Of a DNA stretch of 64,000 bases, positions 3,828-55,047 are shown piece after piece. Origin of the DNA: an uncultured Candidatus Saccharibacteria bacterium (lineage in GTDB: Bacteria; Patescibacteriota; Minisyncoccia; Phycocordibacterales; UBA9973); contig CAZIZK010000002.1 in the NCBI GenBank assembly GCA_964544225.1, positions 69,452 through 133,451 on the forward strand, in the 5' to 3' direction. The position numbers were made by a program, and so were the translations under genes. Positions within the stretch are counted from its first letter, which is position 1. Each line of letters opens with the position of its first letter. The notes below the pieces were generated by a model. That model had not been told where the DNA came from. It made no database searches and saw only the letters and a list, made by a program, of their open reading frames with translations.

Positions 3828-6636
3828 GAATTCAAGCAATAAATTAAAACAAATATTTATATCTACATTTATTGTTGGTATTTTTGTATTATTCTTAATA
3901 CCTTTAAATACAAATGCAGCAACTTGGACACAACAATTAGGTTCAGGTAGTAGGTATTGGTCCGATGTAGCTTCATCATCTGATGGTACAAAATTGGTAG
4001 CGGTAGGAAATAATAGTTCTGATGGAGTATATATCTACACATCAACCGACAGTGGAGCAACCTGGACAGAGCGAACAGGTGCAGGACAGCATAATTGGAG
4101 AGGGGTAGCTTCTTCATCTGATGGTACAAAATTGGTAGCTATATATTATGATGGTTCCGCTGGTTCTATATACACATCAAGTGACAGTGGGGCAAACTGG
4201 ACAGAGCGTACAGGCGCTGGTTCTAGGCAATTTTTTTCAGTCGCATCATCTGCTGATGGTACAAAGCTTGTAATTGGTGTAATTGGTGGTGGATATATCT
4301 ACACATCAAGTGACAGTGGGGCAAACTGGACAGAGCGTACAGGCGCTGGTAGCTCATATTGGTACAGTGTTGCATCATCAGCTGACGGTACAAAATTAGT
4401 AGCAGTAAAAAATACAGGTCTCGGTTCTGACTATATCTATACATCCACTGACAGTGGAGCAAACTGGACAGAGCGCACAGGTGCTGGTAATAAGCGTTGG
4501 ACAAGCGTTGCATCATCTACTGATGGTACAAAATTGGTAGCAGTAGAAGATAATAATAGTAATGCTGGTGGGGGGTATGTATACACATCTACTGACAGTG
4601 GTGCAAACTGGACACAACAAACTGGTTCGGGTCTTGATTTTTGGCAGAGTGTTGCATCATCTGCTGATGGTAGTATATTGATAGCAACAACATATAATTA
4701 TATATATCTATCTTACGATAGTGGTGTTAGTTGGGCAGCACAAACTCTTGCAGGTAATCAAACTTGGGGAAGCACTGCTTCATCGTCTGATGGTACAAAA
4801 TTCATTACATTTGCACCTGGTCCTGGTAATCTAGGTTATATATACACATCTCCTGCGATTGTCCCTTCGTTAACAACAGGTGCATCTTCATCTACAACAC
4901 AAACAACAACAACGTTATCTAGTAATATGGTAGATATAGGTGCAGACACACCAACAATACGAGGTGTCCAATATGGATTAACAACATCTTATGGATCAAC
5001 AGCTTCAGAAAGTGGTTCATTTAGTACAGGTGTGTACACCTTGGGATTAACAGGTCTGACTTGTAACTCTACTTATCATTATCGTGCATACTCAACCAAT
5101 AGTTCTGGTACAGGATACGGTAGCGACGCAACATTTAGTACTTCTTATTGTGCACCTACCATGACTTCTGGATCTTCTTCATCTATAGCTAGCACAACAG
5201 CAACTCTAGCTGGTGAAATAACGGCAAATGGTGGAGCAACAAGTACCATACGAGGTTTCCAATATGGCACAACAACCTCTTATGGATCCACAGTTTCAGA
5301 AAGTGGGTCATATGGACCATTTGGTACATACCTCTCCCAATTTGGAACAAATGGTGGTGGTGACGGAGAGCTTGATTATAGTCAAGGAATTGAAACAGAT
5401 TCTTCTGGTAATATATATGTTGTTGATCAGTATAATGGACGCGTTCAGAAATTTAACTCTAGTGGAACTTTTGTTTGGAAAACAAGTTATGCATTTGACT
5501 ATCCTACTGGTATAGCTATTGACTCATCGGGTAATCTTTATGTTCTTGATGGTAATAGTACAGTTGTAAAGCTCGACCCTTCTGGTATATATGTATCCCA
5601 ATTCAGTTCAAATGGTTCTGGCAATGGAGAGTTAGCATACCCTTATGCAATAGCTATTGACTCAGATGATAATATTTATATAGCTGATAGTGGTAATAGC
5701 CGTATTCAGAAATTCGATCCAAGTGGTGTGTATCTTTTGCAGTGGGATGGAAGTGATAGTCCTGATGGAGCTCTATCCGTTCCTCGAGGTATTGCAGTTG
5801 GTGCAGATGGTAATATATATGTATCTGAGCGTAATGCCTCAAGAAGAATTATAAAATTTACACCTTCTGGAGTTTATATTTCTCAATTCGGATCATCAGG
5901 CTCTGGAGATGGACAGTTTAATAGACCTCATGGTATAACAGTCGATTCTTTAGGTAATATATACGTAGCTGATATGAATAACAACCGTATTCAGAAATTC
6001 GATTCTACTGGTGCCTATGTAGCCCAATTCGGCTCATCTGGTTCTGGAAATGTAGAATTCTCGCAACCTTTTGATGTGGCTATAGATTCAAATAATAATA
6101 TATATGTATCTGATACTAATAATAATCGTGTCCAAAAGTTAGCAGTTTCTGGTAACTACACAGCTTCACTTACAGGTCTTGTGTGTGGAACCACATACCA
6201 CTACCGTGCGTATGCTACAAACTCTATAGATACTGGATATGGATCTGACGCGACATTTACCACATCTGCATGTGCTACAAGTTCTGCAACAGGTTCATCG
6301 GCTGGTAGTAGAATACAAAATTTATTAAATATGGGTAAAGTGGATGAGGCGCAAAAATTAGCACTCCAATTTCCAAATGCAGTAACTCCAACTCAAAATC
6401 AATTCAATACCCCAGGTATACAAATAACAAAGAAGCTGATAAGGGGTATTAAAGACAATGAAGTAAAGACACTTCAAACCATACTAAATAAAATATTAAA
6501 TATGAATCTAGTAATCGACGGAGCTTTTGGACTAAAGACTCGTAATGCTGTTATGGAATTTCAAAAGAAATATAATCTAAAGGCCGATGGGGTAGTAGGG
6601 CCTATGACAAGAGGGGTATTAAATAAATTATTATAG
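3826..6636 (+). CDS. Large secreted surface protein with BNR/Asp-box propeller, Fn3-like modules, NHL repeats and a C-terminal peptidoglycan-binding domain
   Basis: Signal peptide present. About seven S-x-D-S-G-A-x-W-T (BNR) repeats with a period near 46 aa. Two Fn3-like modules (LTGLxCxTTYHYRAYxTN..GxGYGSD). Six NHL repeats (GNIYVxDxxNNRIQKF). C-terminal DGxFGxKTxxAVxxFQKxxxLxADGVVGPxT = PG_binding_1. The ORF caller's GTG at 3802 runs through a (TA)9 tract. ATG 3826 (MNSSNKLKQ) is the likely start. Confidence 0.7.
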   Translation: MNSSNKLKQIFISTFIVGIFVLFLIPLNTNAATWTQQLGSGSRYWSDVASSSDGTKLVAVGNNSSDGVYIYTSTDSGATWTERTGAGQHNWRGVASSSDGTKLVAIYYDGSAGSIYTSSDSGANWTERTGAGSRQFFSVASSADGTKLVIGVIGGGYIYTSSDSGANWTERTGAGSSYWYSVASSADGTKLVAVKNTGLGSDYIYTSTDSGANWTERTGAGNKRWTSVASSTDGTKLVAVEDNNSNAGGGYVYTSTDSGANWTQQTGSGLDFWQSVASSADGSILIATTYNYIYLSYDSGVSWAAQTLAGNQTWGSTASSSDGTKFITFAPGPGNLGYIYTSPAIVPSLTTGASSSTTQTTTTLSSNMVDIGADTPTIRGVQYGLTTSYGSTASESGSFSTGVYTLGLTGLTCNSTYHYRAYSTNSSGTGYGSDATFSTSYCAPTMTSGSSSSIASTTATLAGEITANGGATSTIRGFQYGTTTSYGSTVSESGSYGPFGTYLSQFGTNGGGDGELDYSQGIETDSSGNIYVVDQYNGRVQKFNSSGTFVWKTSYAFDYPTGIAIDSSGNLYVLDGNSTVVKLDPSGIYVSQFSSNGSGNGELAYPYAIAIDSDDNIYIADSGNSRIQKFDPSGVYLLQWDGSDSPDGALSVPRGIAVGADGNIYVSERNASRRIIKFTPSGVYISQFGSSGSGDGQFNRPHGITVDSLGNIYVADMNNNRIQKFDSTGAYVAQFGSSGSGNVEFSQPFDVAIDSNNNIYVSDTNNNRVQKLAVSGNYTASLTGLVCGTTYHYRAYATNSIDTGYGSDATFTTSACATSSATGSSAGSRIQNLLNMGKVDEAQKLALQFPNAVTPTQNQFNTPGIQITKKLIRGIKDNEVKTLQTILNKILNMNLVIDGAFGLKTRNAVMEFQKKYNLKADGVVGPMTRGVLNKLL

Positions 6637-8111: not shown

Positions 8112-8146
8112 AGGTACAGTATAACATAGTGTGATATAATTTTGGA

Positions 8147-9142
8147 ATGAACAAAGAAATACTTATAGATACAGTTAGTAAATTAGTAAAAGAACCAAAG
8201 GGAATACTCGCTATCGATGAGAGCATGCCTACTTGTAATACTCGATTTGAAAAATTGGGCATCCCGACAACAGAAGAAAAGCGCCGAGATTACCGTGACT
8301 TGTTAGTATCTGCCCCTGGTATAGAACAATACGTTTCTGGATATATCACATTCGACGAGACAATGCGCCAGAGCACACGCGATGGAGTAACATTCCCAAA
8401 TGTTTTAAAGAATAAGGGTATTGAGGTGGGTATCAAGCTCGATGAAGGTACAAAGAATTTCAACGACATGGGTGAGAAGGTGACAACAGGCTTGGATAGT
8501 CTGCCAACACGCATACCAGAATACAAAGCTATGGGTGCAAGCTTTGCAAAGTGGCGCGCTGTGATAAATATCGGTGATGGTTTACCAACTGACGAGGCAT
8601 TGAATGCAAATGCTCAAGCTTTATCAAAATATGCAAAGATCTGCCAAGACAATGATATCGTTCCAATAGTTGAGCCTGAAGTTCTAATCGATGGTAACCA
8701 CACTATGGAGCGTTGTTATGAGGTAACAGCAAACAACTTAGATATTTTATTTACAGCTTTAGCTAATGAAGGTGTATTTATTCCCGGCATAATTTTAAAG
8801 ACAAGTATGATCCTACCAGGTAAAGATAGTGGTATCATTGCAATACCCGAGCAAGTAGCCGAGATGACAATCAAATGTCTTCGTGAACATGTACCAGCAG
8901 ATATTGGTGGCATTGTGTTCCTCTCTGGTGGCCAGAGCGATATGGACGCAGTGTTGAACCTAAACGCAATGAAGAAGAATGCTGACTTGCCTTGGGCTCT
9001 GACATTCTCATACGGGCGTGCAATACAGAACAATGCATTACAAGCTTGGGCAAAGAATCCTACAGATATAGCCGGCGCACAAAATGCATTACTTGAATCT
9101 GCAAAGGCAAATAGCCTAGCATCTGTGGGTCAATATAAATAA
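8147..9142 (+). CDS. fba: Fructose-bisphosphate aldolase, class I
   Basis: GILAIDES..RRDYRDLL..GIKLDEG matches the eukaryote-type class I FBA signature. Confidence 0.8.
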   Translation: MNKEILIDTVSKLVKEPKGILAIDESMPTCNTRFEKLGIPTTEEKRRDYRDLLVSAPGIEQYVSGYITFDETMRQSTRDGVTFPNVLKNKGIEVGIKLDEGTKNFNDMGEKVTTGLDSLPTRIPEYKAMGASFAKWRAVINIGDGLPTDEALNANAQALSKYAKICQDNDIVPIVEPEVLIDGNHTMERCYEVTANNLDILFTALANEGVFIPGIILKTSMILPGKDSGIIAIPEQVAEMTIKCLREHVPADIGGIVFLSGGQSDMDAVLNLNAMKKNADLPWALTFSYGRAIQNNALQAWAKNPTDIAGAQNALLESAKANSLASVGQYK

Positions 9143-25807: not shown

Positions 25808-27746
25808 GAATTCAAACAATAAATTAAAACAAATATCTAGAAATATATTATTTATATTTTCTTTTCTATCATTAGTTTTACCAACGAGTGTGTTTGCTGC
25901 TGCTGGTACTCCTGATACTACATTTACCACAAATATGGGTGATCCAGGGCTTGATAATGTTGTACGTGCTTCTGTTGTATTGTCTAATGACAAAATAGTT
26001 GTTGGAGGGTCTTTTAATTATTTAAATGACATAATAGATGCAAATTATGTTGCTGGGTTTAATAGTGATGGAACTCCGGATACTACATTTAATACAAATC
26101 TTGGGACAGGCTTTAGTGATGCTGTATATGCTATGGCTGTTCAATCTGATGATAAAATAGTTGTAGGAGGGTCTTTTACTGGTATAAATGGAACAACAAG
26201 CAATCGTATAGCTCGATTAAACAGTGACGGAACACTTGATACTACTTTTACCACAAATATTGGCACAGGATTTGGAGCTACTCGTGTAAACACTATCGCT
26301 ATCCAGTCTGACGGCAAGATAGTTGTTGGAGGTTCGTTTAGTACTATAAACGGGGTGACAAGTAACCGTATCGCTCGATTAAACAGCGACGGAACTCCAG
26401 ATACTACCTTTACCACTAATATCGGTACAGGGTTTGGTAGTAGCGTGTATCGTGTAGGGATACAGTCTGATGGTAAAATAATTGCTGGAGGAATATTTAG
26501 TACTCTTAATGATGTATCTACTACTACTATAGCTCGATTAAACAGCGACGGTACTCCTGATACTACATTTACCACAAATATTGGTACAGGATTTGATAAT
26601 GATGTACAAACATTAGCGGTTTTATCTAATGATAAGATCGTTGTCGGTGGATTAATAGAAAATTTTAATGGCACGAGTATACATTTCTTTACTGGGTTAA
26701 ATAGTGATGGTACATTAGATACAACATTTAATACAAATCTTGGGACAGGCTTTGGTAATTTCGTAGAGACCATCGCTATCCAATCTGACAATAAAATAAT
26801 AGTAGGAGGGTCTTTTACTACAATTAACGGTGTAACTAGTAACCGTATTGCAAGGTTAAGTAGTGTTGGAATCCCAGATACTACCTTTACCACTAATATC
26901 GGTACAGGGTTTGATGGAACAACACGCACGATTGCTTTCCAATCTGATGGTAAAATAATCGTTGGAGGGGCTTTTGGTTCTGTAAATAGTGTAACTAGTA
27001 ATTACGTTGCTCGTCTTGATGGTGATGTATTTGCTCCTACTGTCACTACTGGTTCAAGCTCGGCTATTACCACAACTACTGCAACCCTTGCCGGTAATAT
27101 AACAGTCACCGGTGGTGAGAATAGTACAACTCGTGGAGTCGAATATGGTCTAACAACAGGTTATGGTACAACTTCATCAGCTTCAGGAAGCTTCAGTACA
27201 GGTGCGTATACTACCGACATCACCGGTCTTACTTGTGGCACTACATACCACTATCGTGCGTATAGTACAAATACTGCAGGTACTGGTACAGGTAGTGATG
27301 ATACATTTACCACATCTACTTGTCCTGTAGTTGCAAGTACTAACAATACTTCTTCTGGGTCATCTGCCGGATCTCGAGCTTCCAACCTATTTGCTATGGG
27401 TAAAGTAACTGAAGCAAATAAAATACTGCAACAATTCCCAAATGCTATAAATGAAATCAAAGATGCAAATACAAAGAATGCTCTATCAAATACAAATACT
27501 GAAAATTCTAATTCTAATATTTCTGGATCAAAGATAACAAAGAAGTTGATTAAAGGTATGAAAGATAATGAAGTAAAGATACTTCAAACAGTTCTAAACA
27601 AAGTATTAAAACTCGGTTTAACTGTAGATGGTGTATTCGGTCAGAAGACCAAAGATGCTGTTATGCAATTCCAAAAAGCTAATAATCTAAAGGCCGATGG
27701 GGTAGTGGGGCCTATAACAAGAGGTGTTTTAAATAAATTACTATAA
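25806..27746 (+). CDS. Secreted surface protein with delta-60-like beta-propeller repeats, one Fn3-like module and a C-terminal peptidoglycan-binding domain
   Basis: N-terminus MNSNNKLKQI is near-identical to the 3826 gene. About nine repeats of roughly 60 aa (GTPDTTFTTNIGTGFG..IQSDGKIVVGGSF..INGVTSNRIARLNSDG). Fn3-like GLTCGTTYHYRAYSTN. The C-terminal PG_binding_1 is about 70% identical to that of the 3826 protein. Confidence 0.7.
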   Translation: MNSNNKLKQISRNILFIFSFLSLVLPTSVFAAAGTPDTTFTTNMGDPGLDNVVRASVVLSNDKIVVGGSFNYLNDIIDANYVAGFNSDGTPDTTFNTNLGTGFSDAVYAMAVQSDDKIVVGGSFTGINGTTSNRIARLNSDGTLDTTFTTNIGTGFGATRVNTIAIQSDGKIVVGGSFSTINGVTSNRIARLNSDGTPDTTFTTNIGTGFGSSVYRVGIQSDGKIIAGGIFSTLNDVSTTTIARLNSDGTPDTTFTTNIGTGFDNDVQTLAVLSNDKIVVGGLIENFNGTSIHFFTGLNSDGTLDTTFNTNLGTGFGNFVETIAIQSDNKIIVGGSFTTINGVTSNRIARLSSVGIPDTTFTTNIGTGFDGTTRTIAFQSDGKIIVGGAFGSVNSVTSNYVARLDGDVFAPTVTTGSSSAITTTTATLAGNITVTGGENSTTRGVEYGLTTGYGTTSSASGSFSTGAYTTDITGLTCGTTYHYRAYSTNTAGTGTGSDDTFTTSTCPVVASTNNTSSGSSAGSRASNLFAMGKVTEANKILQQFPNAINEIKDANTKNALSNTNTENSNSNISGSKITKKLIKGMKDNEVKILQTVLNKVLKLGLTVDGVFGQKTKDAVMQFQKANNLKADGVVGPITRGVLNKLL

Positions 27747-39937: not shown

Positions 39938-40336
39938 TTACCAATTCAATCGAGTTATTGTTAATTGCAAAACTGTAGCAAATGATACCCATAACAAATA
40001 CGGTATCTGGATATAGGCAATCCAACGTGCGTGTGGGTAGATAGCTACCATTAGCCATACAATAGTAATCAAGATCAATACTATATCAATAGCAGCCAAT
40101 AAATTATTTTTTAATCCAAATTGAAAATAAGTAAAAGAGAAATTAAAAATCAAATTTAAAATAAAAGGCAATACTACAATAAATGGGATCTGCTTGTTGT
40201 AGAACATCATAAATACTTTACCAAAAGATATGGCAATAAGTATATACAAGAATGTCCAAACAGGCCCGAATAGGAAGCTCGGTGGTGACCATGTTGGCTT
40301 GATAAGTGTGCTGTACCAGTTGTATGAATTATTCAT
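39938..40336 (-). CDS. TspO/MBR family protein (short)
   Basis: WYSTLIKPTWSPPSFLFGPVWTFLY matches the TspO N-terminal consensus. Confidence 0.6.
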   Translation of the reverse strand: MNNSYNWYSTLIKPTWSPPSFLFGPVWTFLYILIAISFGKVFMMFYNKQIPFIVVLPFILNLIFNFSFTYFQFGLKNNLLAAIDIVLILITIVWLMVAIYPHARWIAYIQIPYLLWVSFATVLQLTITRLNW

Positions 40337-40375
40337 ACATACATTATAGCACTTTCACAAATAATATTGTGCGTT

Positions 40376-40761: not shown

Positions 40762-41280
40762 TTATTTTGTATTGTATGCCCAGTGTAGTAGTGCCTGGCG
40801 CTGGCGTGGTCGGCAGTGTATGTCGCCAGGCCTGCAGTTCGCACTGATCTGGCCTAGGTGCCTGCGGATAGCCTTCCACCTCTTTATCTGCCTCGCATCT
40901 TCCTTTGGAATCCGGCGCCCCATATAATACCGGCAGTACCATTGGAACCAGCCTCGGGGGTCATCCTTGTGTATCCAGTGCTTTACCTTCCACTCGGCTA
41001 GCGACTGGCTTGCATTGACTCCAAAATAATTTAACCCTGGTTCCCTCTTTGTACCTTTGGCCATTTTTGCCCGGGTGAACCAATCCTTTGGAAATTCTTT
41101 TATACAATCACGCATGTATATGCCACCGAATACGCCCATTGCCAGCATTTGCTTTGGGGTAACATTTGGCTTGAACTCGGGGTCGAAATTCTTGCCCACC
41201 GGCTCGGTCAGTACATATTCGTAACCCTTTTGCATTTTGTCATTTACTACGACTTTTTTATTTTGCTTTTTTTGCTTCAT
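40762..41280 (-). CDS. Conserved hypothetical protein (DUF4385-like)
   Basis: GGIYMRDC..LNYFGV..GWFQWYCRYYMGRR..EDARQIKRW conserved blocks. Confidence 0.45.
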   Translation of the reverse strand: MKQKKQNKKVVVNDKMQKGYEYVLTEPVGKNFDPEFKPNVTPKQMLAMGVFGGIYMRDCIKEFPKDWFTRAKMAKGTKREPGLNYFGVNASQSLAEWKVKHWIHKDDPRGWFQWYCRYYMGRRIPKEDARQIKRWKAIRRHLGQISANCRPGDIHCRPRQRQALLHWAYNTK

Positions 41281-41531
41281 TTTGTTTTGTAATTTTTTAT
41301 TAATTCTAGCTTTTGTGTGCGGGTCAATTTCTTTATTTTCGCTTCTGCTATCGATGCCCGGGACCGGTCGCGGAACTTTCTGGAATATACCAGTGTCACA
41401 GGCCTGCGTGCCGATGTATATTTGGCACCCAACTTGCTTGTGTTATGTTCACCCACACGCCTCTTTAAATCGGTTGTAATGCCCGTATACAGCGTTTTAT
41501 CCGCACATCTGAGTATATATAGGTGGTACAT
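41277..41531 (-). CDS. GIY-YIG nuclease superfamily protein (YhbQ/UPF0213-like)
   Basis: YHLYILRCADKTLYTGITTDLKRRVGEHN is a GIY-YIG signature. Start taken at MYHLY (ORF caller start 41585). Confidence 0.7.
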   Translation of the reverse strand: MYHLYILRCADKTLYTGITTDLKRRVGEHNTSKLGAKYTSARRPVTLVYSRKFRDRSRASIAEAKIKKLTRTQKLELIKNYKTK

Positions 41532-41602
41532 TATTTTATTATAGCACTTTTGTGGATAATTTATTTCCTTGCCTATTATGATCATTTTGATATAATTTCA
41601 AG

Positions 41603-41893
41603 ATGAATCAATTAATTATATTTTTTTATAATACTATCTTTATTTATCCTGTATTTTTTGTATTTTGTATAGTAATACTATTTTTAACTCGTAAGGAATA
41701 TAAGGGTATTAAAAATAAACAAAAAAACGATTTAAGTAATAATGAAAAATTTGTCATTTTTTTATATAAATTAAGTAAAATATATGCTTATATATTTACT
41801 ATTGCAGTTGTATTATATTATTTAACTGGTACATTTGAACTTTTTTACGGAATAATTAGAGTTGCCTGTTCAGATAATATTTGTCTTAACTAA
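41603..41893 (+). CDS. Small AT-rich hypothetical membrane protein
   Basis: 96 aa with 2 TM. Very AT-rich, so it may be non-coding. Confidence 0.25.
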   Translation: MNQLIIFFYNTIFIYPVFFVFCIVILFLTRKEYKGIKNKQKNDLSNNEKFVIFLYKLSKIYAYIFTIAVVLYYLTGTFELFYGIIRVACSDNICLN

Positions 41894-42159
41894 TCTGCTT
41901 GGCAGAATATAGCACCTTCTTTTTGAAGTAGTTTAGCTTTTGCCATGCTTCCACCACGATTGTAGTCGCCCACTTTACCATCGCTACGTATGACACGGTG
42001 GCAAGGCACATCTGGCTTGTAATTCCCCTTCATGATACTACCCACCACTCGACAAGCTCGTGGCGAGCCTGCACGTGTAGCGACTTGTTTATAAGTCATT
42101 GTTTTACCCTTTGGTATTTTACGGACAATGTCTAGCACCTTTTCATTAAAACTTTTCAT
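41890..42159 (-). CDS. ogt: Methylated-DNA-protein-cysteine methyltransferase family protein (MGMT DNA-binding domain only)
   Basis: PCHRVI active-site motif and HTH region. 89 aa. Confidence 0.75.
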   Translation of the reverse strand: MKSFNEKVLDIVRKIPKGKTMTYKQVATRAGSPRACRVVGSIMKGNYKPDVPCHRVIRSDGKVGDYNRGGSMAKAKLLQKEGAIFCQAD

Positions 42160-42168
42160 TGTATTTTA

Positions 42169-42657
42169 CTACTTCAAATAACTATCAAAGTATATAGCAT
42201 GACAGGTGTAGCCACCTGGGTTCTTTTGTAGAAAGTCTTGATTAAAATCTTCAGCGACCCAGAATTTGGTAAATGGCTCAAGTGTTGTTACTACAGGCCC
42301 CGGCCATCGGCCGGAATCGTTGACTATTTTTATAAAATCTTTCGCTTGCTTTAATTCACTTTCATTCTGGTAGAATATCGCACTCCTATATGAAGTACCC
42401 ATATCATTACCCTGCTGGTTGAGTGTAGTTGGGTTGTGTATCTGAAAGAAGAAGTCCAGCAACTTCCAGAAGCTCGTAATATTTGGGTCATAGACTATCT
42501 CTATTGCTTCAGCATGGCCTGCATGGTTCTCATAAGTAGGATTTTCCACAGTCCCACCAGTATACCCTGCGGTAATATCCAATACTCCCGCCTGACTTCG
42601 CATCAGTTCCTCGAGGCCCCAGAAGCACCCACCAGCTAAATATGCTTTGTTATTCAT
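42169..42657 (-). CDS. msrA: Peptide methionine sulfoxide reductase MsrA
   Basis: GGCFWGLEE active-site motif. Confidence 0.9.
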   Translation of the reverse strand: MNNKAYLAGGCFWGLEELMRSQAGVLDITAGYTGGTVENPTYENHAGHAEAIEIVYDPNITSFWKLLDFFFQIHNPTTLNQQGNDMGTSYRSAIFYQNESELKQAKDFIKIVNDSGRWPGPVVTTLEPFTKFWVAEDFNQDFLQKNPGGYTCHAIYFDSYLK

Positions 42658-42664
42658 AAAATAA

Positions 42665-42961
42665 TTATATCACCTTTATAAATACTTTTATTTCATCACC
42701 TGGGTAGATATCTTCCGCACGCAATACCTTTTTATTTATACATATTAGGTATTCCACTTGTTTAGACTTTTTATTTACTGTGTGTGGGAAAAGTGATGTA
42801 TTCCATATTGTATGGCCCACCTTTACCTGCACTTTTACAAAGCCTTTTGTGTACACCTGGCGGATACCTTCGGACACCTTTTTATCGAGCGTTACAAAAT
42901 GCCAGCCCGCATCGCCCGGCCACCGCCACACCTTTGCCTTGATTGTAAAATCCTTCTTCAT
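42665..42961 (-). CDS. DUF1905-like small protein
   Basis: VWRWPGDAGWHFVTL..motif. 98 aa. Confidence 0.45.
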   Translation of the reverse strand: MKKDFTIKAKVWRWPGDAGWHFVTLDKKVSEGIRQVYTKGFVKVQVKVGHTIWNTSLFPHTVNKKSKQVEYLICINKKVLRAEDIYPGDEIKVFIKVI

Positions 42962-44855: not shown

Positions 44856-44890
44856 TAAAGCGACACAATTTGTCGCTTTTTTATTTTTTA
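44856..44890. terminator. Bidirectional terminator (aaagcgacacaatttgtcgctttttt)
   Basis: Hairpin with flanking A-run and T-run between convergent genes. Confidence 0.65.
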
Positions 44891-45408
44891 TAATATTTAC
44901 ACCCTTTTACATGCGCGCCAGGTAGCAGGCCTATGGACATGAGGAATTCATTTACTATTTCCCCGCCGGTAAATTTAAATGTTTTCTTGAACAATTTCAC
45001 CCACTCCCCTTTATTTAAATTTGGATACTCCAAAAGCCATTTATGGAACGACCCATGTTTCTTTTGTAACCCTATTATTACATTGGCATTATGTATGGCC
45101 GCATCTACCTTTAGCCTGTTACGGATTATCCCCGCATCGGCCAGTAGTCGTGCACGGTCAGTATCACCATACTTTGCTACCTTTTTAATATTAAAATTAT
45201 TATAAGCTTTTCTAAAATTCTTTTGCTTGTTTAATATAGTGTTCCAGCTTAGGCCGGCTTGGTTTATCTCCAGTATCAACCTTTCAAATAAATCATTATC
45301 GTCATTTATATCCACGCCATAGAATTGGTCATGGTATACACGGTGCACATTGTCCGGTGGTAATGTCTTTACATAATCACAATAAGATTTTGGTTTTTCT
45401 TTTCCCAT
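44881..45408 (-). CDS. tag: DNA-3-methyladenine glycosylase I
   Basis: CxY..YHDxEWGVP-like N-terminus (YCDYV..YHDQFYGVD), EINQAGLSW and Zn-binding Cys. Confidence 0.85.
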   Translation of the reverse strand: MGKEKPKSYCDYVKTLPPDNVHRVYHDQFYGVDINDDNDLFERLILEINQAGLSWNTILNKQKNFRKAYNNFNIKKVAKYGDTDRARLLADAGIIRNRLKVDAAIHNANVIIGLQKKHGSFHKWLLEYPNLNKGEWVKLFKKTFKFTGGEIVNEFLMSIGLLPGAHVKGCKYYKK

Positions 45409-45417
45409 TTGAGTTTA

Positions 45418-45451
45418 AACATTCCTACATTCTCAAGAATGTAGGAATGTT
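45418..45451. promoter_or_regulatory. Perfect 16-2-16 palindrome P1 (candidate ArsR-family operator)
   Basis: AACATTCCTACATTCT-CA-AGAATGTAGGAATGTT. Lies 10 bp upstream of the tag ATG and overlaps the last codons of the regulator gene. Confidence 0.6.
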
Positions 45452-45717
45452 TTTATGAACTTTGTAATTTGTTTTCCGTATGGTGAAAGAGAGTGCGCTA
45501 CTTGCCTACCCTTGTAGTTTTTATTTAGCAAGCCTGCTTGCACCAGTCTGCGAGTATGTTCAGAAACTGTTTTAAAATTAGCTTTCAATTGTGTTGCTAT
45601 TTCGTCGACAGTAATACCATCATGCTTTTCAACTATCAGGAGGATGTCTATTCGACGATGATTCGCGATACCTTTGAAGTGCCTCTCGATCTGTTTACTT
45701 GTTTTGATCTTTTGCAT
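45433..45717 (-). CDS. ArsR/SmtB-family winged-helix transcriptional regulator
   Basis: ..RRIDILLIVEKHDGITVDEIATQLKANFKTVSEHTRRLVQAGLL.. HTH. 94 aa. Leaderless-type promoter (TGATATAAT 8 nt before the ATG). Confidence 0.75.
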   Translation of the reverse strand: MQKIKTSKQIERHFKGIANHRRIDILLIVEKHDGITVDEIATQLKANFKTVSEHTRRLVQAGLLNKNYKGRQVAHSLSPYGKQITKFIKTFLHS

Positions 45718-45733
45718 GTTTTAATTATATCAA

Positions 45734-45767
45734 GACATTCGCACATTCTCAAGAATGTAGGAATGTT
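45734..45767. promoter_or_regulatory. Palindrome P2 (candidate operator overlapping the regulator's own promoter)
   Basis: gACATTCgcACATTCT-CA-AGAATGTAGGAATGTT, two mismatches from P1 and P3. Sits immediately upstream of the -10 of the ArsR-family gene. Confidence 0.6.
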
Positions 45768-45814
45768 TATAAAGGGATGAGGGAGGATTAGGAGGAGGGT
45801 TTAGTGATAGAGGG

Positions 45815-46180
45815 TTACTTCCCTTCTACGAATTTGAGTGATATTGAATTTACACAGTGGCGGGTGTTTTTGTCTGTTAGCATCTCGCCTTCGAATACGT
45901 GGCCTAGGTGGCCACCACAGTTTGCACAAGTGATCTCTTGCCCATAATATGGATCAATATAAGAGGCTCTTTTGATAGCACCTGGAATCTCCTGATCAAA
46001 ACTTGGCCATCCGCATGTATATTCGAATTTATCCTTTGAGTCATATAGCGGTGCATTGCACTGCTTGCACACATATACACCCGTTGCTTTGTTATTCACA
46101 TACTCACCGGTAAAAGGCATCTCGGTCCCTTTGTCCACTATCACCCTCTTCTCTTCCTCTGTTAGTTGATTTAATTGCAT
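45815..46180 (-). CDS. msrB: Peptide methionine sulfoxide reductase MsrB
   Basis: SelR domain with CxxC..CxxC zinc site and catalytic RHCVNS. Start taken at MQLNQLTEEEK. The ORF caller's 5' extension overlaps the upstream small gene. Confidence 0.85.
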   Translation of the reverse strand: MQLNQLTEEEKRVIVDKGTEMPFTGEYVNNKATGVYVCKQCNAPLYDSKDKFEYTCGWPSFDQEIPGAIKRASYIDPYYGQEITCANCGGHLGHVFEGEMLTDKNTRHCVNSISLKFVEGK

Positions 46181-46190
46181 GTTATTTTTT

Positions 46191-46394
46191 TTATAACGGA
46201 ATTCCAAAACATAAAGATCTTTCTTCGGCATCTGCCAATTCTTTTGTAGGAGTATAGGTAAAGCCATAGCAATGCTTCTTTTCATTTGCCTCCCATGCAT
46301 CGTATATTTCTTTTGTTGTATAACCTGGGTACGTAACAAATGACTTTGGGAAAAAGAATACTGCTATTAAAATAAAAATTATCAAGTATTTCAT
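46191..46394 (-). CDS. Small secreted/membrane protein upstream of msrB
   Basis: MKYLIIFILIAVFFF signal/TM. 67 aa. Leaderless-type promoter 6 nt upstream. Confidence 0.35.
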   Translation of the reverse strand: MKYLIIFILIAVFFFPKSFVTYPGYTTKEIYDAWEANEKKHCYGFTYTPTKELADAEERSLCFGIPL

Positions 46395-46400
46395 AAGCCA

Positions 46401-46438
46401 ATTATACCACAAAGCCCGAGTGTTCCCTCGGGCTTTTT
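46401..46438 (-). promoter_or_regulatory. Terminator-hairpin + TTTGTGGTATAAT extended -10 module
   Basis: Minus strand reads gcccgagggaacactcgggc-TTTGTGGTATAAT, with the -10 six nt before ATG 46394. Confidence 0.55.
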
Positions 46439-46445
46439 ATTATAA

Positions 46446-46483
46446 TGAACATTCCTACATTCTCAAGAATGTAGGAATGTTCA
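46446..46483. promoter_or_regulatory. Perfect 18-2-18 palindrome P3
   Basis: TGAACATTCCTACATTCT-CA-AGAATGTAGGAATGTTCA, upstream of the small-protein/msrB operon promoter. Confidence 0.6.
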
Positions 46484-46487
46484 TTGG

Positions 46488-46739
46488 TTAATTTTTTCTC
46501 CAGCGTGGGGCGAAGCGGATCATGAATGTGTAAAACTTGGCTAATATATATGGGGTGCCACTTTTACGCATGGATTCGTAGCAGACTTTTTGAAACTCTT
46601 TCAAGTCATTGCCTTCGTAACAAAGCTTGCCGCCCTTGTAGCACAGGCTACAATAAATATCGCTCTCCCTTACCCCTGGGTCCTTACTAAAAGGCATTAA
46701 ACAACTCTGACACGCATTACATTTTTTGTTTTGGCTCAT
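46488..46739 (-). CDS. Putative zinc-ribbon domain protein (Zn_ribbon_2-like)
   Basis: CNACQSCLMPF..YCSLCYKGGK pattern. Confidence 0.5.
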   Translation of the reverse strand: MSQNKKCNACQSCLMPFSKDPGVRESDIYCSLCYKGGKLCYEGNDLKEFQKVCYESMRKSGTPYILAKFYTFMIRFAPRWRKN

Positions 46740-48372: not shown

Positions 48373-49122
48373 CTATTTTTGAAATATAAATAAATGCTCG
48401 TGCATTATTAATAAGAAATTTGAATCTTTTGATTTTTGAACCCAAAATCCTGTAGCCTTGCAATTAAATTGCCTCTTAATAATGTCTTCTTTTAATTCAA
48501 AACCAGAATCTAAAAACTTTTGCATTACTTTGTATGCCAATGGCTGATACATTTTATTACGCCTTGTGTCCCCCATTAGAATTGCACAGAATTTACCTGG
48601 TCTTAATACTCGATATAATTCTTTTGCGGTCTTTTCAATTTCATAACAAAACTTGTCTATATCATGAATATTTGAAATATCGTCCTCTATTGTTCCATCG
48701 CTATATTTAATTATGTCTGCATATGGTGGATGAGTAAGAGCAAAATCTATCTCTTTATCTTTAATAAAGCTTAAATTTCTGGCATCACCCTTCACCACTC
48801 TTTGTTTAGATTTATTATCAACAATGAAATCTAAAGCTTTTATAGTTCTTTCAATAGCTACTTCATTAACATCTACACAAGTAATATGCCTATTTAAAAT
48901 TTTTGCTTCTATTGCTGTCGTGCCACCACCAATCATGCAATCTAGCAAATGGTCGCCCTCTTTTGAGTATCTTAAAATTAAATTCCGTACAACCTCTGGT
49001 GCCCAATTACCTCGCCAATCTGAAGTATGTGTAGCCCAGTTACCACGACGAGGAAAAGCCCAGACCGTAGTACACTCCATTTCAAAACTTTCAGGATGAA
49101 GTTTTAAATTTTTTTGAGACAT
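48373..49122 (-). CDS. DNA methyltransferase (N4-cytosine/N6-adenine, PF01555-like)
   Basis: Motif I LDCMIGGGTTAIEA and motif IV THPPYAD. The PF01555-like FP..L region precedes motif I. Confidence 0.7.
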   Translation of the reverse strand: MSQKNLKLHPESFEMECTTVWAFPRRGNWATHTSDWRGNWAPEVVRNLILRYSKEGDHLLDCMIGGGTTAIEAKILNRHITCVDVNEVAIERTIKALDFIVDNKSKQRVVKGDARNLSFIKDKEIDFALTHPPYADIIKYSDGTIEDDISNIHDIDKFCYEIEKTAKELYRVLRPGKFCAILMGDTRRNKMYQPLAYKVMQKFLDSGFELKEDIIKRQFNCKATGFWVQKSKDSNFLLIMHEHLFIFQK

Positions 49123-49130
49123 TGTTTTTT

Positions 49131-49751
49131 TTACTTTTTATTCCAACAATTTTTAGGAAAACCTATTTTCTTTAAAATATCTGTAAACGCAACATATTCA
49201 ATATGTTGTTCTTTGTAAAAAGCCAAGCTTTCTTTGAGTTCGATTGTTTGATTATTTTTATCTAAGAGATCTCCAAAAGCGAACTTTTCTCTAGCTTCAT
49301 ATTCTTGATAGCCAACTAAAATTATTTGTAGTGGTTTGTGATAAAGCCTTGGAACTTCTCCATATTTCAAAGGTACACCAAGAATTTTTTCGCCCGCAGT
49401 ACCTGGAGTAGACCAGCTTCTACCTTTTACTTCATAAACATAATCGTCACATTCTAAATCTGGATCATATTTTTTAGTTCTTAATGAGCTTTTTTTAGTG
49501 GTGGTAGACCTAACATTTTTTCTACCGAGCTTAATAAGTGCCTCCATTACTAATTCTTGGCAAAGTACAGTTGTCCATTGTTTTCCGCCAATGGTATTAA
49601 TAACCTTATTGCCCCAATCTTGCTCAATTTTCTTTGATTCTTTAAGCCTTTTCTCGCTTTCAGTATTACGCAAAGAAATATCAGTGATACCTTCATAGCA
49701 CCATTGAATAACTTTTGGATTATTAAGCAAATTTAAATTTTCTTTTTTCAT
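49131..49751 (-). CDS. Putative restriction endonuclease (PD-(D/E)xK-like)
   Basis: ECDDYVYEVKG resembles a (D/E)xK catalytic motif. Gene is immediately upstream of, and co-oriented with, the methyltransferase. Confidence 0.4.
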   Translation of the reverse strand: MKKENLNLLNNPKVIQWCYEGITDISLRNTESEKRLKESKKIEQDWGNKVINTIGGKQWTTVLCQELVMEALIKLGRKNVRSTTTKKSSLRTKKYDPDLECDDYVYEVKGRSWSTPGTAGEKILGVPLKYGEVPRLYHKPLQIILVGYQEYEAREKFAFGDLLDKNNQTIELKESLAFYKEQHIEYVAFTDILKKIGFPKNCWNKK

Positions 49752-52735: not shown

Positions 52736-52975
52736 TTATAATAAATTATCTATCCCGCCGCCGTCGGTGACATGGGTAAAGCCATTCTCTGCCAGCATGT
52801 TGCAGGCCATCATGGATCGGTTGCCCGATTCGCAATACACTACTATCTCGGCACCCTTTTCTATATCAGGGAACTTGCCATACATCATGTCCATAATGTC
52901 GTGATGTATCGCACCGTCTACACAGCCACAATCATACTCGCCTTTTGTTCGCACATCTAAAATATACCTAGTCAT
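52736..52975 (-). CDS. Single-domain rhodanese sulfurtransferase
   Basis: Starts MTRYILDVRTKGEYD. Active-site CESGNRS. TTGTGGTATAAT sits directly upstream, so likely leaderless. Confidence 0.75.
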   Translation of the reverse strand: MTRYILDVRTKGEYDCGCVDGAIHHDIMDMMYGKFPDIEKGAEIVVYCESGNRSMMACNMLAENGFTHVTDGGGIDNLL

Positions 52976-53044
52976 ATAGCTATTATACCACAATAAAAAA
53001 GAACCCTTTTACCAGACAGCGACCCGGTCGCTGGTTGGTTTGAC

Positions 53045-54347: not shown

Positions 54348-55010
54348 TTACTTCAAACTGATACTCTCCAATATTACAGGCTTTACTGGGCGGTCATTTG
54401 GGCCTGTTGCAACATTGTTGATAGCTGTTACTACGTCCATACCGGCTGTTACCTTGCCAAATACTGTGTGCTTTGTATCAAGGAAATTGTTCGGAGCAAC
54501 GTTGACGAAGAATTGGCTACCGTTTGTATTTGGGCCAGAGTTGGCCATTGATATAGTGCCTACATCGTTGCGGTTTGTAGATGTCAATTCATCGTCGAAC
54601 TTGTACCCTGGGCCACCTGTACCCCAATAATCAGCCCTGCTGTCATCCTTTGTCAGTGGGTCGCCACCTTGGTTCATAAAGCCTTTTATAACACGGTGGA
54701 ACTTTGTGCCGTTGTAGAAGCCCTCCTTTGCTAATTTGGTAAAGTTGTCCACTGTGCGTGGTGTTGTGTTACTAAACTCGATAGTGATGTCGCCCATGTT
54801 TGTGTGTAATGTTGCTTGCATAATCTTCTTGTTATTTACTTCTTTATTAATAATTGTTTTATCGCCTGCGTCTGTCGCCTGTGTTGTATTGTCTAATAAT
54901 TGATTGATATCTTGGTTATTTACATTGTCGGACTGTTTATTCCTAATAGCAAAGTAAGCCATACCACCTATTACTAATAATATAATAATACCTATTAAAA
55001 CTTTTTTCAT
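54348..55010 (-). CDS. ppiB: Peptidyl-prolyl cis-trans isomerase, cyclophilin type (membrane-anchored)
   Basis: FHRVIKGFMNQGGDP and ..GTISMANSGPNTNGSQFF cyclophilin motifs. N-terminal TM. Confidence 0.85.
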   Translation of the reverse strand: MKKVLIGIIILLVIGGMAYFAIRNKQSDNVNNQDINQLLDNTTQATDAGDKTIINKEVNNKKIMQATLHTNMGDITIEFSNTTPRTVDNFTKLAKEGFYNGTKFHRVIKGFMNQGGDPLTKDDSRADYWGTGGPGYKFDDELTSTNRNDVGTISMANSGPNTNGSQFFVNVAPNNFLDTKHTVFGKVTAGMDVVTAINNVATGPNDRPVKPVILESISLK

Positions 55011-55047
55011 AAGAAGATTATATCATAAAATAAAAGAAAAACAGGCC

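Follow-up and report, generated by a model that had tools for sequence, protein, structure and literature searches.

A winged-helix protein of Patescibacteria and the long palindromes that bracket its gene: a probable regulator-operator pair

A stretch of 64,000 nucleotides from an uncultured Candidatus Saccharibacteria bacterium (assembly GCA_964544225.1, contig CAZIZK010000002.1, positions 69,452 to 133,451), termed here the window, harbors three long and nearly identical palindromes, P1, P2 and P3, which are grouped around the gene of a small winged-helix protein (45433-45717, minus strand). The palindromes are probably high-affinity operators of this protein, as judged from sequence comparison, and the protein together with the family motif RACATTCYNACATTCT-NN-AGAATGTNRGAATGTY, in which two arms of 16 nt enclose a centre of 2 nt (16-2-16), most likely constitutes a pair inherited throughout the Patescibacteria. 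Co-occurrence of protein and site, a fixed geometry between them and a matched conservation of both were observed, and the pair was found to be conserved from Saccharibacteria to Paceibacteria. The Patescibacteria, also known as the candidate phyla radiation (CPR), account for a large share of bacterial diversity and are endowed with tiny genomes and few regulators, and virtually none of their transcription factors has, to our knowledge, been characterised.

Palindromes and promoters at the regulator locus

A pattern search of the window for AACATTCCTACATTCT-NN-AGAATGTAGGAATGTT, with up to three mismatches allowed, returned three copies in total, all of them located within 1.1 kb, where the chance expectation is 0 and none of 100 shuffled sequences contained a match; isolated half-sites were not detected elsewhere in the 64 kb. 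P1 (45418-45451), which corresponds to the site named O2 in the family, is a perfect 16-2-16 palindrome and takes in the five terminal codons and the stop codon of the regulator gene (ACA TTC CTA CAT TCT TGA), the TGA spanning the palindrome centre. P2 (45734-45767), the family site O1, has its centre 33.5 bp upstream of the regulator ATG and carries three mismatches over 34 nt, all of them in the arm on the -10 side: two fall within the 12-2-12 core and the third is the outermost base. P3 (46446-46483) is a perfect 18-2-18 palindrome, the 16-2-16 part of which (46448-46481) is likewise perfect; it starts 4 nt past the stop codon of a Zn_ribbon_2 gene and is strain-specific, being missing, together with the small open reading frame (ORF) that follows it, from two loci (L001 and L002) whose regulator is identical to that of the window. 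A preliminary description of this DNA, made from the sequence alone, had already recognised the three near-identical palindromes, the overlap of P1 with the final codons of the regulator and the 18-2-18 form of P3, all of which are borne out, while its two mismatches in P2 become three and its 10 bp between P1 and tag, the gene of a 3-methyladenine DNA glycosylase, become 9 nt before the tag ATG (45408).

In a promoter scan of the region 44.7-46.9 kb, the two top promoter-like sites, which stand far above the rest, were found to have the centres of P2 and P3 as their -35 boxes. The regulator promoter (45724-45752, minus strand) is composed of a -35 box TTGAGA (45752-45747), a 17-nt spacer and a TG-extended -10 box TATAAT (45729-45724), with 11/12 matches in addition to the TG and only 6 nt from the -10 box to the ATG. 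The gene is thus preceded by TGATATAAT-N6-ATG and its mRNA is predicted to be leaderless, in agreement with the earlier proposal that P2 overlaps a leaderless promoter. The site centred on P3 (46439-46466, minus strand) combines a -35 box TTGAGA with a -10 box TATAAT over a 16-nt spacer, again with 11/12 matches. Neither a promoter-like site nor a -10 box was detected at P1 in the same scan. P1 was rejected as a promoter of tag for want of an acceptable -10 box at a workable distance, and also as the operator of such a promoter, its position being set by the family-wide overlap with the regulator stop codon.

Conservation of protein and site

Loci were anchored on the protein alone, comprising 80 metagenome loci and those from an exact-protein look-up, and regulators were defined by a hidden Markov model, which gave 117 distinct loci from diverse Patescibacteria. 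In nearly every protein-anchored locus the palindrome is present twice. O1, the upstream RACATTCYNACATTCT-NN-inverse, occurs in 105 of the 117 loci, with its centre usually 32-38 bp before codon 1, and O2, on or near the stop codon, in 99, so that the 16-2-16 motif brackets the gene in about 85-90% of loci and the tie between palindromes and regulator suggested earlier is corroborated. The centre of O2 lies at -1.5 nt from the last stop base in 49 loci and at +7.5 nt in 33, which means that 82 of the 99 sites share one register. The two classes correspond to different ends of the gene, TTC CAA CAT TCT TGA (..TFQHS), which ends at the palindrome centre, and TTC TAA (..TF), which ends in an arm. 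Both ORF endings are set in the same DNA register, and therefore it is the DNA element that is conserved and the C-terminal peptide that follows. The stop-codon palindrome would accordingly dictate the C-terminus of the protein (TFQHS-stop or TF-stop), which represents a DNA signal constraining a coding sequence.

The arm logo reads R-A-C-A-T-T-C-Y-N-A-C-A-T-T-C-T, in which 12 of the 16 positions are nearly invariant; the conserved stretch extends from position -3 to 12 and includes an internal direct repeat, ACATTC-N2-ACATTC. Since the family logo is conserved along the whole arm, the long arms, previously singled out as unusual for an ArsR/SmtB operator, are to be regarded as a family trait. 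Position 5 is mismatched between the arms in 42% of sites, which is more in keeping with a protein that reads half-sites than with a hairpin that must form. Variant operator cores, for which co-variation between recognition helix and operator was sought, were encountered at three loci only (L032, L065 and L066).

The two sites differ in their promoter geometry. A -10 box with at least 5/6 matches is located 16-18 nt past the centre in 24 of 105 O1 sites versus 5 of 99 O2 sites, and because of this split O1 and P3 look like classical occluding operators and O2 and P1 do not. Moreover, O2 is retained also where the next gene is convergent, and O1 is present also where the upstream gene is divergent, hence at no gene's 3' end in those loci.

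Structure and affiliation of the regulator

The regulator of 94 amino acids was examined by Pfam, a PDB profile search, AlphaFold2 and Foldseek. HTH_5 (PF01022) was matched weakly, with 27.6 bits against a cut-off of 22, and the assignment within the winged helix-turn-helix (wHTH) clan is not unique, because MarR (31 bits) and HTH_24 also pass the cut-off. The profile search, built on 35 homologues, retrieved HlyU (1.5e-6) and Lmo1102/CadC (3.8e-5), and also ArsR and CzrA. The AlphaFold2 model (mean predicted local distance difference test score, pLDDT, 88.9) consists of the elements H7-14, H20-31, H37-44, H48-60, E64-69, E72-77 and H79-92, the order of which, with five helices plus a beta-hairpin wing, is that of ArsR/SmtB proteins, and its best Foldseek matches were CadC, SqrR, HlyU, CzrA and SmtB with TM-scores of 0.69-0.76. 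By sequence and predicted structure, the regulator is thus assigned to the ArsR/SmtB winged-helix family. The inverted-repeat operator over the own promoter that is typical of this family is seen here as the 16-2-16 palindrome on the -35 box of the regulator promoter in the window, the upstream site O1 being present in 105/117 loci.

The 94 residues include no cysteine, and the alpha5 helix KQITKFIKTFLHS is devoid of a ligand set of the DxHx10Hx2E type and hence of an alpha5 metal site, which supports the earlier remark that the metal-binding cysteines of ArsR/SmtB proteins are lacking. None of the recognised inducer sites, namely an alpha3/alpha3N cysteine cluster, alpha5 Asp/His/Glu ligands or a redox cysteine pair, was found in the protein. 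Such features set the sensor subgroups of the ArsR/SmtB family apart, not the fold family itself. The homologues number 1,198, the top 120 having identities of 65-95%, and all those with a lineage name belong to Patescibacteria. Hardly any variation is seen among the homologues in the recognition helix NFKTISEHTRRLVQAGLLNK and in the wing.

Copies beyond the regulator locus

When 185,579 species genomes were scanned for the DNA pattern TTCCKACATTCTNNAGAATGT alone, at least 119 stretches were obtained. The listed matches, to which the following counts refer, derive almost entirely from Patescibacteria of many classes, with a few due to chance or mis-binning, and the regulator gene is contained in 34 of the 119 loci. 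The 163 good sites are distributed over O1 or O2 (62), ORFs of at least 80 amino acids (31), intergenic regions between tandem genes (32), between convergent genes (11) and between divergent genes (10), and locus edges (17). Since 38% of these sites are O1 or O2, only about five copies per genome are expected; some genomes carry at least 6-8. Sites outside long ORFs represent 65% of the total, as compared with roughly 10% of non-coding DNA. Nor are the sites confined to the neighbourhood of promoters: where the gap measures 150 bp or more, 11 are nearer to the upstream stop and 11 nearer to the downstream start. The idea that the palindrome centre generally serves as a -35 box of defined orientation was rejected, as -10-like boxes past the centre are enriched in both orientations (TG 18%, CA 16%, background 4.5%), which makes orientation uninformative outside O1, P2 and P3.

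In three loci (L142:304-7279, L060:2939-5284 and L048:2930-5782), arrays of 4-5 near-identical palindromes were observed, the copies of which are mostly placed some tens of bp ahead of the starts of small accessory genes, including MNT and HEPN toxin-antitoxin, RhuM-Fic, DUF6498, Zincin_1 and restriction endonuclease (REase)-like genes; two of the L048 copies lie either within a called gene or far from one. In several arrays, an extended -10 box (TGTTAAAAT) draws its TG from the outer TGT of a palindrome. Canonical palindromes were also met on contigs binned outside Patescibacteria (L132, L141, L165, L166, L169, L179 and L196), namely in bins of Pacearchaeota, Verrucomicrobia, Omnitrophota, Chthoniobacterales, Phycisphaerae and Gammaproteobacteria. 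These contigs, of which L165 includes the regulator gene, are mostly short, with L132 from a contig of 103 kb and L196 from one of 19 kb, and they are probably mis-binned Patescibacteria. The general motif had no match in 2.9 million viral contigs, and a phage origin was rejected on this ground.

Among the listed sites, 24 lie deep inside long ORFs, and 18 of them are read in a single frame, HS[DN]IL[EQK]NVG[MI]. The hosts are housekeeping genes, many concerned with tRNA modification, namely tsaD (L199:1760-2953, L160:4976-6211 and L205-L208), tsaC/Sua5 (3), tgt (4; L089, L092, L133 and L189), truB, class-V cysteine desulfurase (2; L138 and L204), gltX (L127), ychF (L108), prmC, a murD-like gene and uvrC. 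In tsaD, the motif occupies the same position in 13 of 120 homologue clusters, the others having NPNILEDIN at equal length, and an origin of the in-frame tsaD copies by insertion was judged unlikely, given this equality of length with and without the site. When six tsaD orthologues were compared, the flanking codons were found to be synonymously saturated around the site CAT TCC [G/A]AC ATT CTn nAG AAT GT[C/T] GGA AT, within which the changes compensate each other, GAC being paired with GTC and AAC with GTT; from these sequences, the site in tsaD is apparently a constraint on DNA or RNA within the coding sequence. When solved homologues are taken as the reference, however, the in-gene sites are found in variable loops that are longer by 4-45 residues (about 9 in TsaD, 4 in IscS and 45 in TGT), the tgt site being situated in a lineage-specific insert of 45 amino acids. 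If functional, the in-frame copies in tRNA-modification genes would point to an intragenic regulation by roadblock or hairpin.

Proposed mechanism and alternative explanations

Protein bound at P2 would hide the -35 box TTGAGA of the leaderless promoter, resulting in negative autoregulation. The centre of P3 likewise coincides with the -35 box of a strong promoter-like site, and binding there would repress transcription into the unit formed by the small ORF and msrB. At P1, bound protein may form a roadblock to polymerases elongating through the 3' end of the regulator gene, which would give rise to transcripts without a stop codon and gate the read-through into tag. The regulator and tag are probably co-transcribed, because the gap between them is only 24 nt and promoter-free; tag has no promoter of its own. 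By analogy, blocking of the polymerase would likewise explain why the sites are unusually long and perfect and why copies are met at gene ends and within genes. A superphylum-wide roadblock system, in which a few tight sites stop RNA polymerase at promoters, at gene ends and inside housekeeping genes, is a tentative extension that we hold to be rather doubtful; if true, the in-gene copies (tsaD, tsaC, tgt, truB, iscS, gltX, prmC and ychF) would be held by synonymous-site selection, and the system could serve to switch growth or dormancy, or to structure the chromosome.

Several points weigh against the operator interpretation. The pairing of protein and site is drawn from comparative and geometric evidence, and the roadblock role of P1 from an analogy with LacI. 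About 15% of the listed sites (24/163) are non-promoter copies deep in genes, 11 of the 53 classifiable intergenic sites lie between convergent genes, and many sites are placed just past stop codons. The preliminary description had held that the palindrome, if scattered over non-promoter contexts, would be a generic repeat or terminator, and such contexts do in part occur in other Patescibacteria genomes. The arms agree at position 5 in 58% versus 31%, which is above the need of a homodimer, and such excess agreement and the compensatory changes in tsaD could reflect a hairpin, or a process by which the palindrome corrects itself. In addition, DNA looping between O1 and O2 was considered and rejected: the spacing of 307-327 bp, clustered at 315-320 bp, has no clear helical phasing and is explained by gene length.

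Taken as hairpins in RNA or single-stranded DNA, the palindromes would be repetitive extragenic palindromic (REP)-like 3'-end elements, terminators or stabilisers that act independently of the protein. All three copies of the window are indeed found at gene 3' ends, P1 and P3 as described above and P2 48 nt past the msrB stop codon, and stable hairpins can be formed (P1, -21.8 kcal/mol, z = -6.5); the copies between convergent genes or just past stops, the excess arm agreement at degenerate positions and the tsaD compensation point in the same direction, as do five loci (L064, L067, L068, L070 and L093) in which O2 is missing and a GC-rich terminator-type hairpin, TCTGACCCCGCATTTGCGGGGTCAGA, stands in its place. 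This account is opposed by O1, which is fixed to the start and promoter of the regulator even with a divergent upstream gene, by the 12/16 arm positions fixed across the superphylum, where pairing alone would permit covariation anywhere, and by the frequent mismatch at position 5. In addition, the stems lack a downstream U-tract, and a search of the window against Rfam gave one tRNA only and no match for the palindrome. Hairpins as the whole explanation are hence unlikely in our judgement, and a hairpin role remains a live rival to the operators or an added layer. Another possibility is that the palindrome is a mobile or recombinogenic cassette-boundary element resembling integrons, REP sequences with their REP-associated tyrosine transposases (RAYT) or Rickettsia palindromic elements (RPE), with the wHTH protein as its factor. 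It would be compatible with the spread of copies over several contigs per genome, the flanking of the regulator by its own repeats, as of RAYT by REPs, the varying gene order around regulators of 94-100% identity, the strain-specific P3, the palindrome-gene-palindrome arrays before toxin-antitoxin, Fic and REase-like genes and the in-frame copies inside genes. Nevertheless, the protein is a bare wHTH of 94 amino acids without a transposase or integrase domain, the copy number is low, tsaD has equal length with or without the site, the homology between the window and L002 breaks inside msrB and not at a palindrome, and viral contigs gave no match. Mobile-element models are consequently weak, and we consider this one very unlikely.

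The preliminary description had proposed a compact, autoregulated regulon against alkylation and oxidation damage, with tag, msrB, msrA, ogt and GIY-YIG genes as its members; we now regard this as improbable. In its favor, tag and msrB flank the regulator in the window, in L002 and in L005, and tag (4), GIY-YIG (2), TspO (2), SelR, NUDIX and MazG-like genes recur by the sites elsewhere. Moreover, tag, msrB, msrA and GIY-YIG are all confirmed by Pfam in the window, and of the claimed ogt there is an ogt-like ORF with a PCHRV motif near 42006 on the minus strand, the ORF at 40762-41280 being rejected as ogt. Yet the 93 distinct proteins encoded next to the sites at regulator loci fall into 94 Pfam families, ranging over DEAD helicases, M16 peptidases, RhuM-Fic, MNT/HEPN, PGK and aminoacyl-tRNA synthetases, and a second set of 49 proteins into 56. 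The most frequent are tag (4), DEAD (3), M16 (3), REase_MTES_1575/DUF559 (3) and GNAT (3), followed by TspO, RhuM-Fic and GIY-YIG with two each; tag is the most frequent enzyme family with only four, and a generic wHTH family was matched by five neighbours. Regulators 94-100% identical to that of the window are embedded in differing gene orders (window, L002, L004 and L005). In the window itself, no palindrome accompanies msrA, the ogt-like ORF, GIY-YIG, TspO or a LexA-like gene, msrA has a leaderless promoter of its own, and the regulator is devoid of redox-active or alkyl-accepting residues such as cysteine. A conserved regulon was therefore rejected, the neighbours being too heterogeneous: stress and repair genes recur near the sites, but the sequences point to the absence of a conserved repair regulon. 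Returning to the operator interpretation, the target set beyond the regulator would differ by genome and consist mostly of small accessory, stress and toxin-antitoxin genes.

Gene organisation of the region

All genes of the region are encoded on the minus strand, and the order of transcription is Zn_ribbon_2, P3, a GC-rich hairpin, the small ORF, msrB, P2, the regulator, P1, tag and a terminator. The Zn_ribbon_2 gene (46488-46739, minus strand), identified by Pfam, lies upstream of P3. Between the P3 promoter and the small ORF, a GC-rich hairpin resembling a terminator or attenuator (46411-46436) would open any transcript begun at that promoter; it could serve as an attenuator, or equally as the terminator of the Zn-ribbon gene. 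The small ORF of 67 amino acids (46191-46394, minus strand) has a hydrophobic N-terminus and no Pfam match; its start is most likely the ATG at 46394, and it has its own leaderless promoter TGGTATAAT-N6-ATG (46409-46392). It is followed by msrB (45815-46180, minus strand; SelR domain, Pfam E = 1.2e-40), and, past the regulator, by tag (44881-45408, minus strand; 3-methyladenine DNA glycosylase I by Pfam), behind which a bidirectional terminator-like hairpin (44857-44879) closes the transcription unit.

The signal TGnTATAAT-N6-ATG occurs nine times in the window against 0.11 expected (8132-8149, 40334-40351, 41529-41546, 41588-41605, 42655-42672, 45715-45732, 46392-46409, 52973-52990 and 55008-55025), and the genes of this organism appear normally to be expressed from extended -10 promoters as leaderless mRNAs. 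The repeat family ATATAAATATTATACCACAAA of the window is the same signal on the opposite strand.

When the window was compared with L002, which encodes the identical regulator, the sequences proved to be near-identical downstream of mid-msrB and about 75-80% identical upstream, with the change at about column 620 of the alignment, within msrB (window 45815-46180, L002:2703-3065). L002 carries a DUF2779 gene where the window has the Zn-ribbon gene, P3 and the small ORF. The change appears from the alignment to mark a recombination breakpoint inside msrB between the two strains.

Further features were noted elsewhere in the window. The LexA-resembling gene (36853-37422, minus strand) encodes 189 amino acids with a Peptidase_S24 domain and an N-terminal HTH-like part, and is situated 8 kb from the stress and repair cluster. 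The segment 46700-51800 is a low-GC island (23-34% versus 39% overall), within which an N6/N4 DNA methyltransferase gene (48373-49122) lies next to an ORF of 206 amino acids (49131-49751) without a Pfam match, which together probably form a restriction-modification system. Long arrays of tandem coding repeats that have diverged from one another, with a period of about 123-162 nt, occupy 3892-6276 and 25889-26988; these two loci, 21 kb apart, share leader regions (families D1-D11) and probably encode large repeat-containing surface proteins.

Comparison with known systems

The classic operators of the ArsR/SmtB family are 12-2-12 inverted repeats at the promoters of their own genes. The present regulator shares with the metal-free repressors of this family (HlyU, NolR, PagR and Rv2034-type) the fold order alpha1-alpha2-alpha3-alphaR-wing-alpha5 in about 95 amino acids, and its site shares with the operators of SmtB, CzrA and CadC the inverted repeat with a 2-bp centre at the own promoter, so that autoregulation would be expected. 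In contrast with these systems, the arms comprise 16 nt instead of 12, each with the repeat ACATTC-N2-ACATTC, a second palindrome is built into the stop codon of the regulator gene, protein and site are almost invariant across a superphylum, and copies are located in coding sequences.

Auxiliary operators in coding DNA are known from lac O2 and gal OI, and a roadblock from C.Kpn2I. P1 resembles LacI O3 in being an operator at or in the 3' end of the repressor gene. LacI bound at O3, near the lacI 3' end, blocks elongation in a form of autorepression that gives rise to a truncated, SsrA-tagged transcript (PMC3711431). Unlike that operator, the site described here covers the stop codon and is kept in about 85% of more than 100 loci, and the regulator is predicted to be a small ArsR-type dimer instead of a LacI tetramer.

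With the REP/RAYT systems, the pair has in common a dispersed palindrome and a gene flanked by two copies; it differs in the few copies per genome, in the lack of a catalytic domain and in a sequence that is fixed as such, not by pairing alone. Neither the HUH Y1 transposase-like gene nor the tens to hundreds of copies that characterise REP/RAYT were encountered. The sites are perfect or near-perfect 34-bp palindromes and not of the integron attC type, and no integrase was present among the Pfam-examined genes at the sites. RPE reportedly occur in frame in housekeeping genes, as Ogata et al. are said to have described in 2000, and some of the present copies are likewise placed in frame in such genes.

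No description of this protein-motif pair in Patescibacteria was found in the literature searched, and the pairing looks undescribed, the ArsR/SmtB autoregulator itself being of a known kind. A near-invariant protein with a predictable 34-bp site offers an entry to the study of regulation in Patescibacteria. What sets it apart from the systems compared here is its near-invariance over a superphylum, the palindrome in the stop codon and the apparently selected in-frame copies in housekeeping genes.

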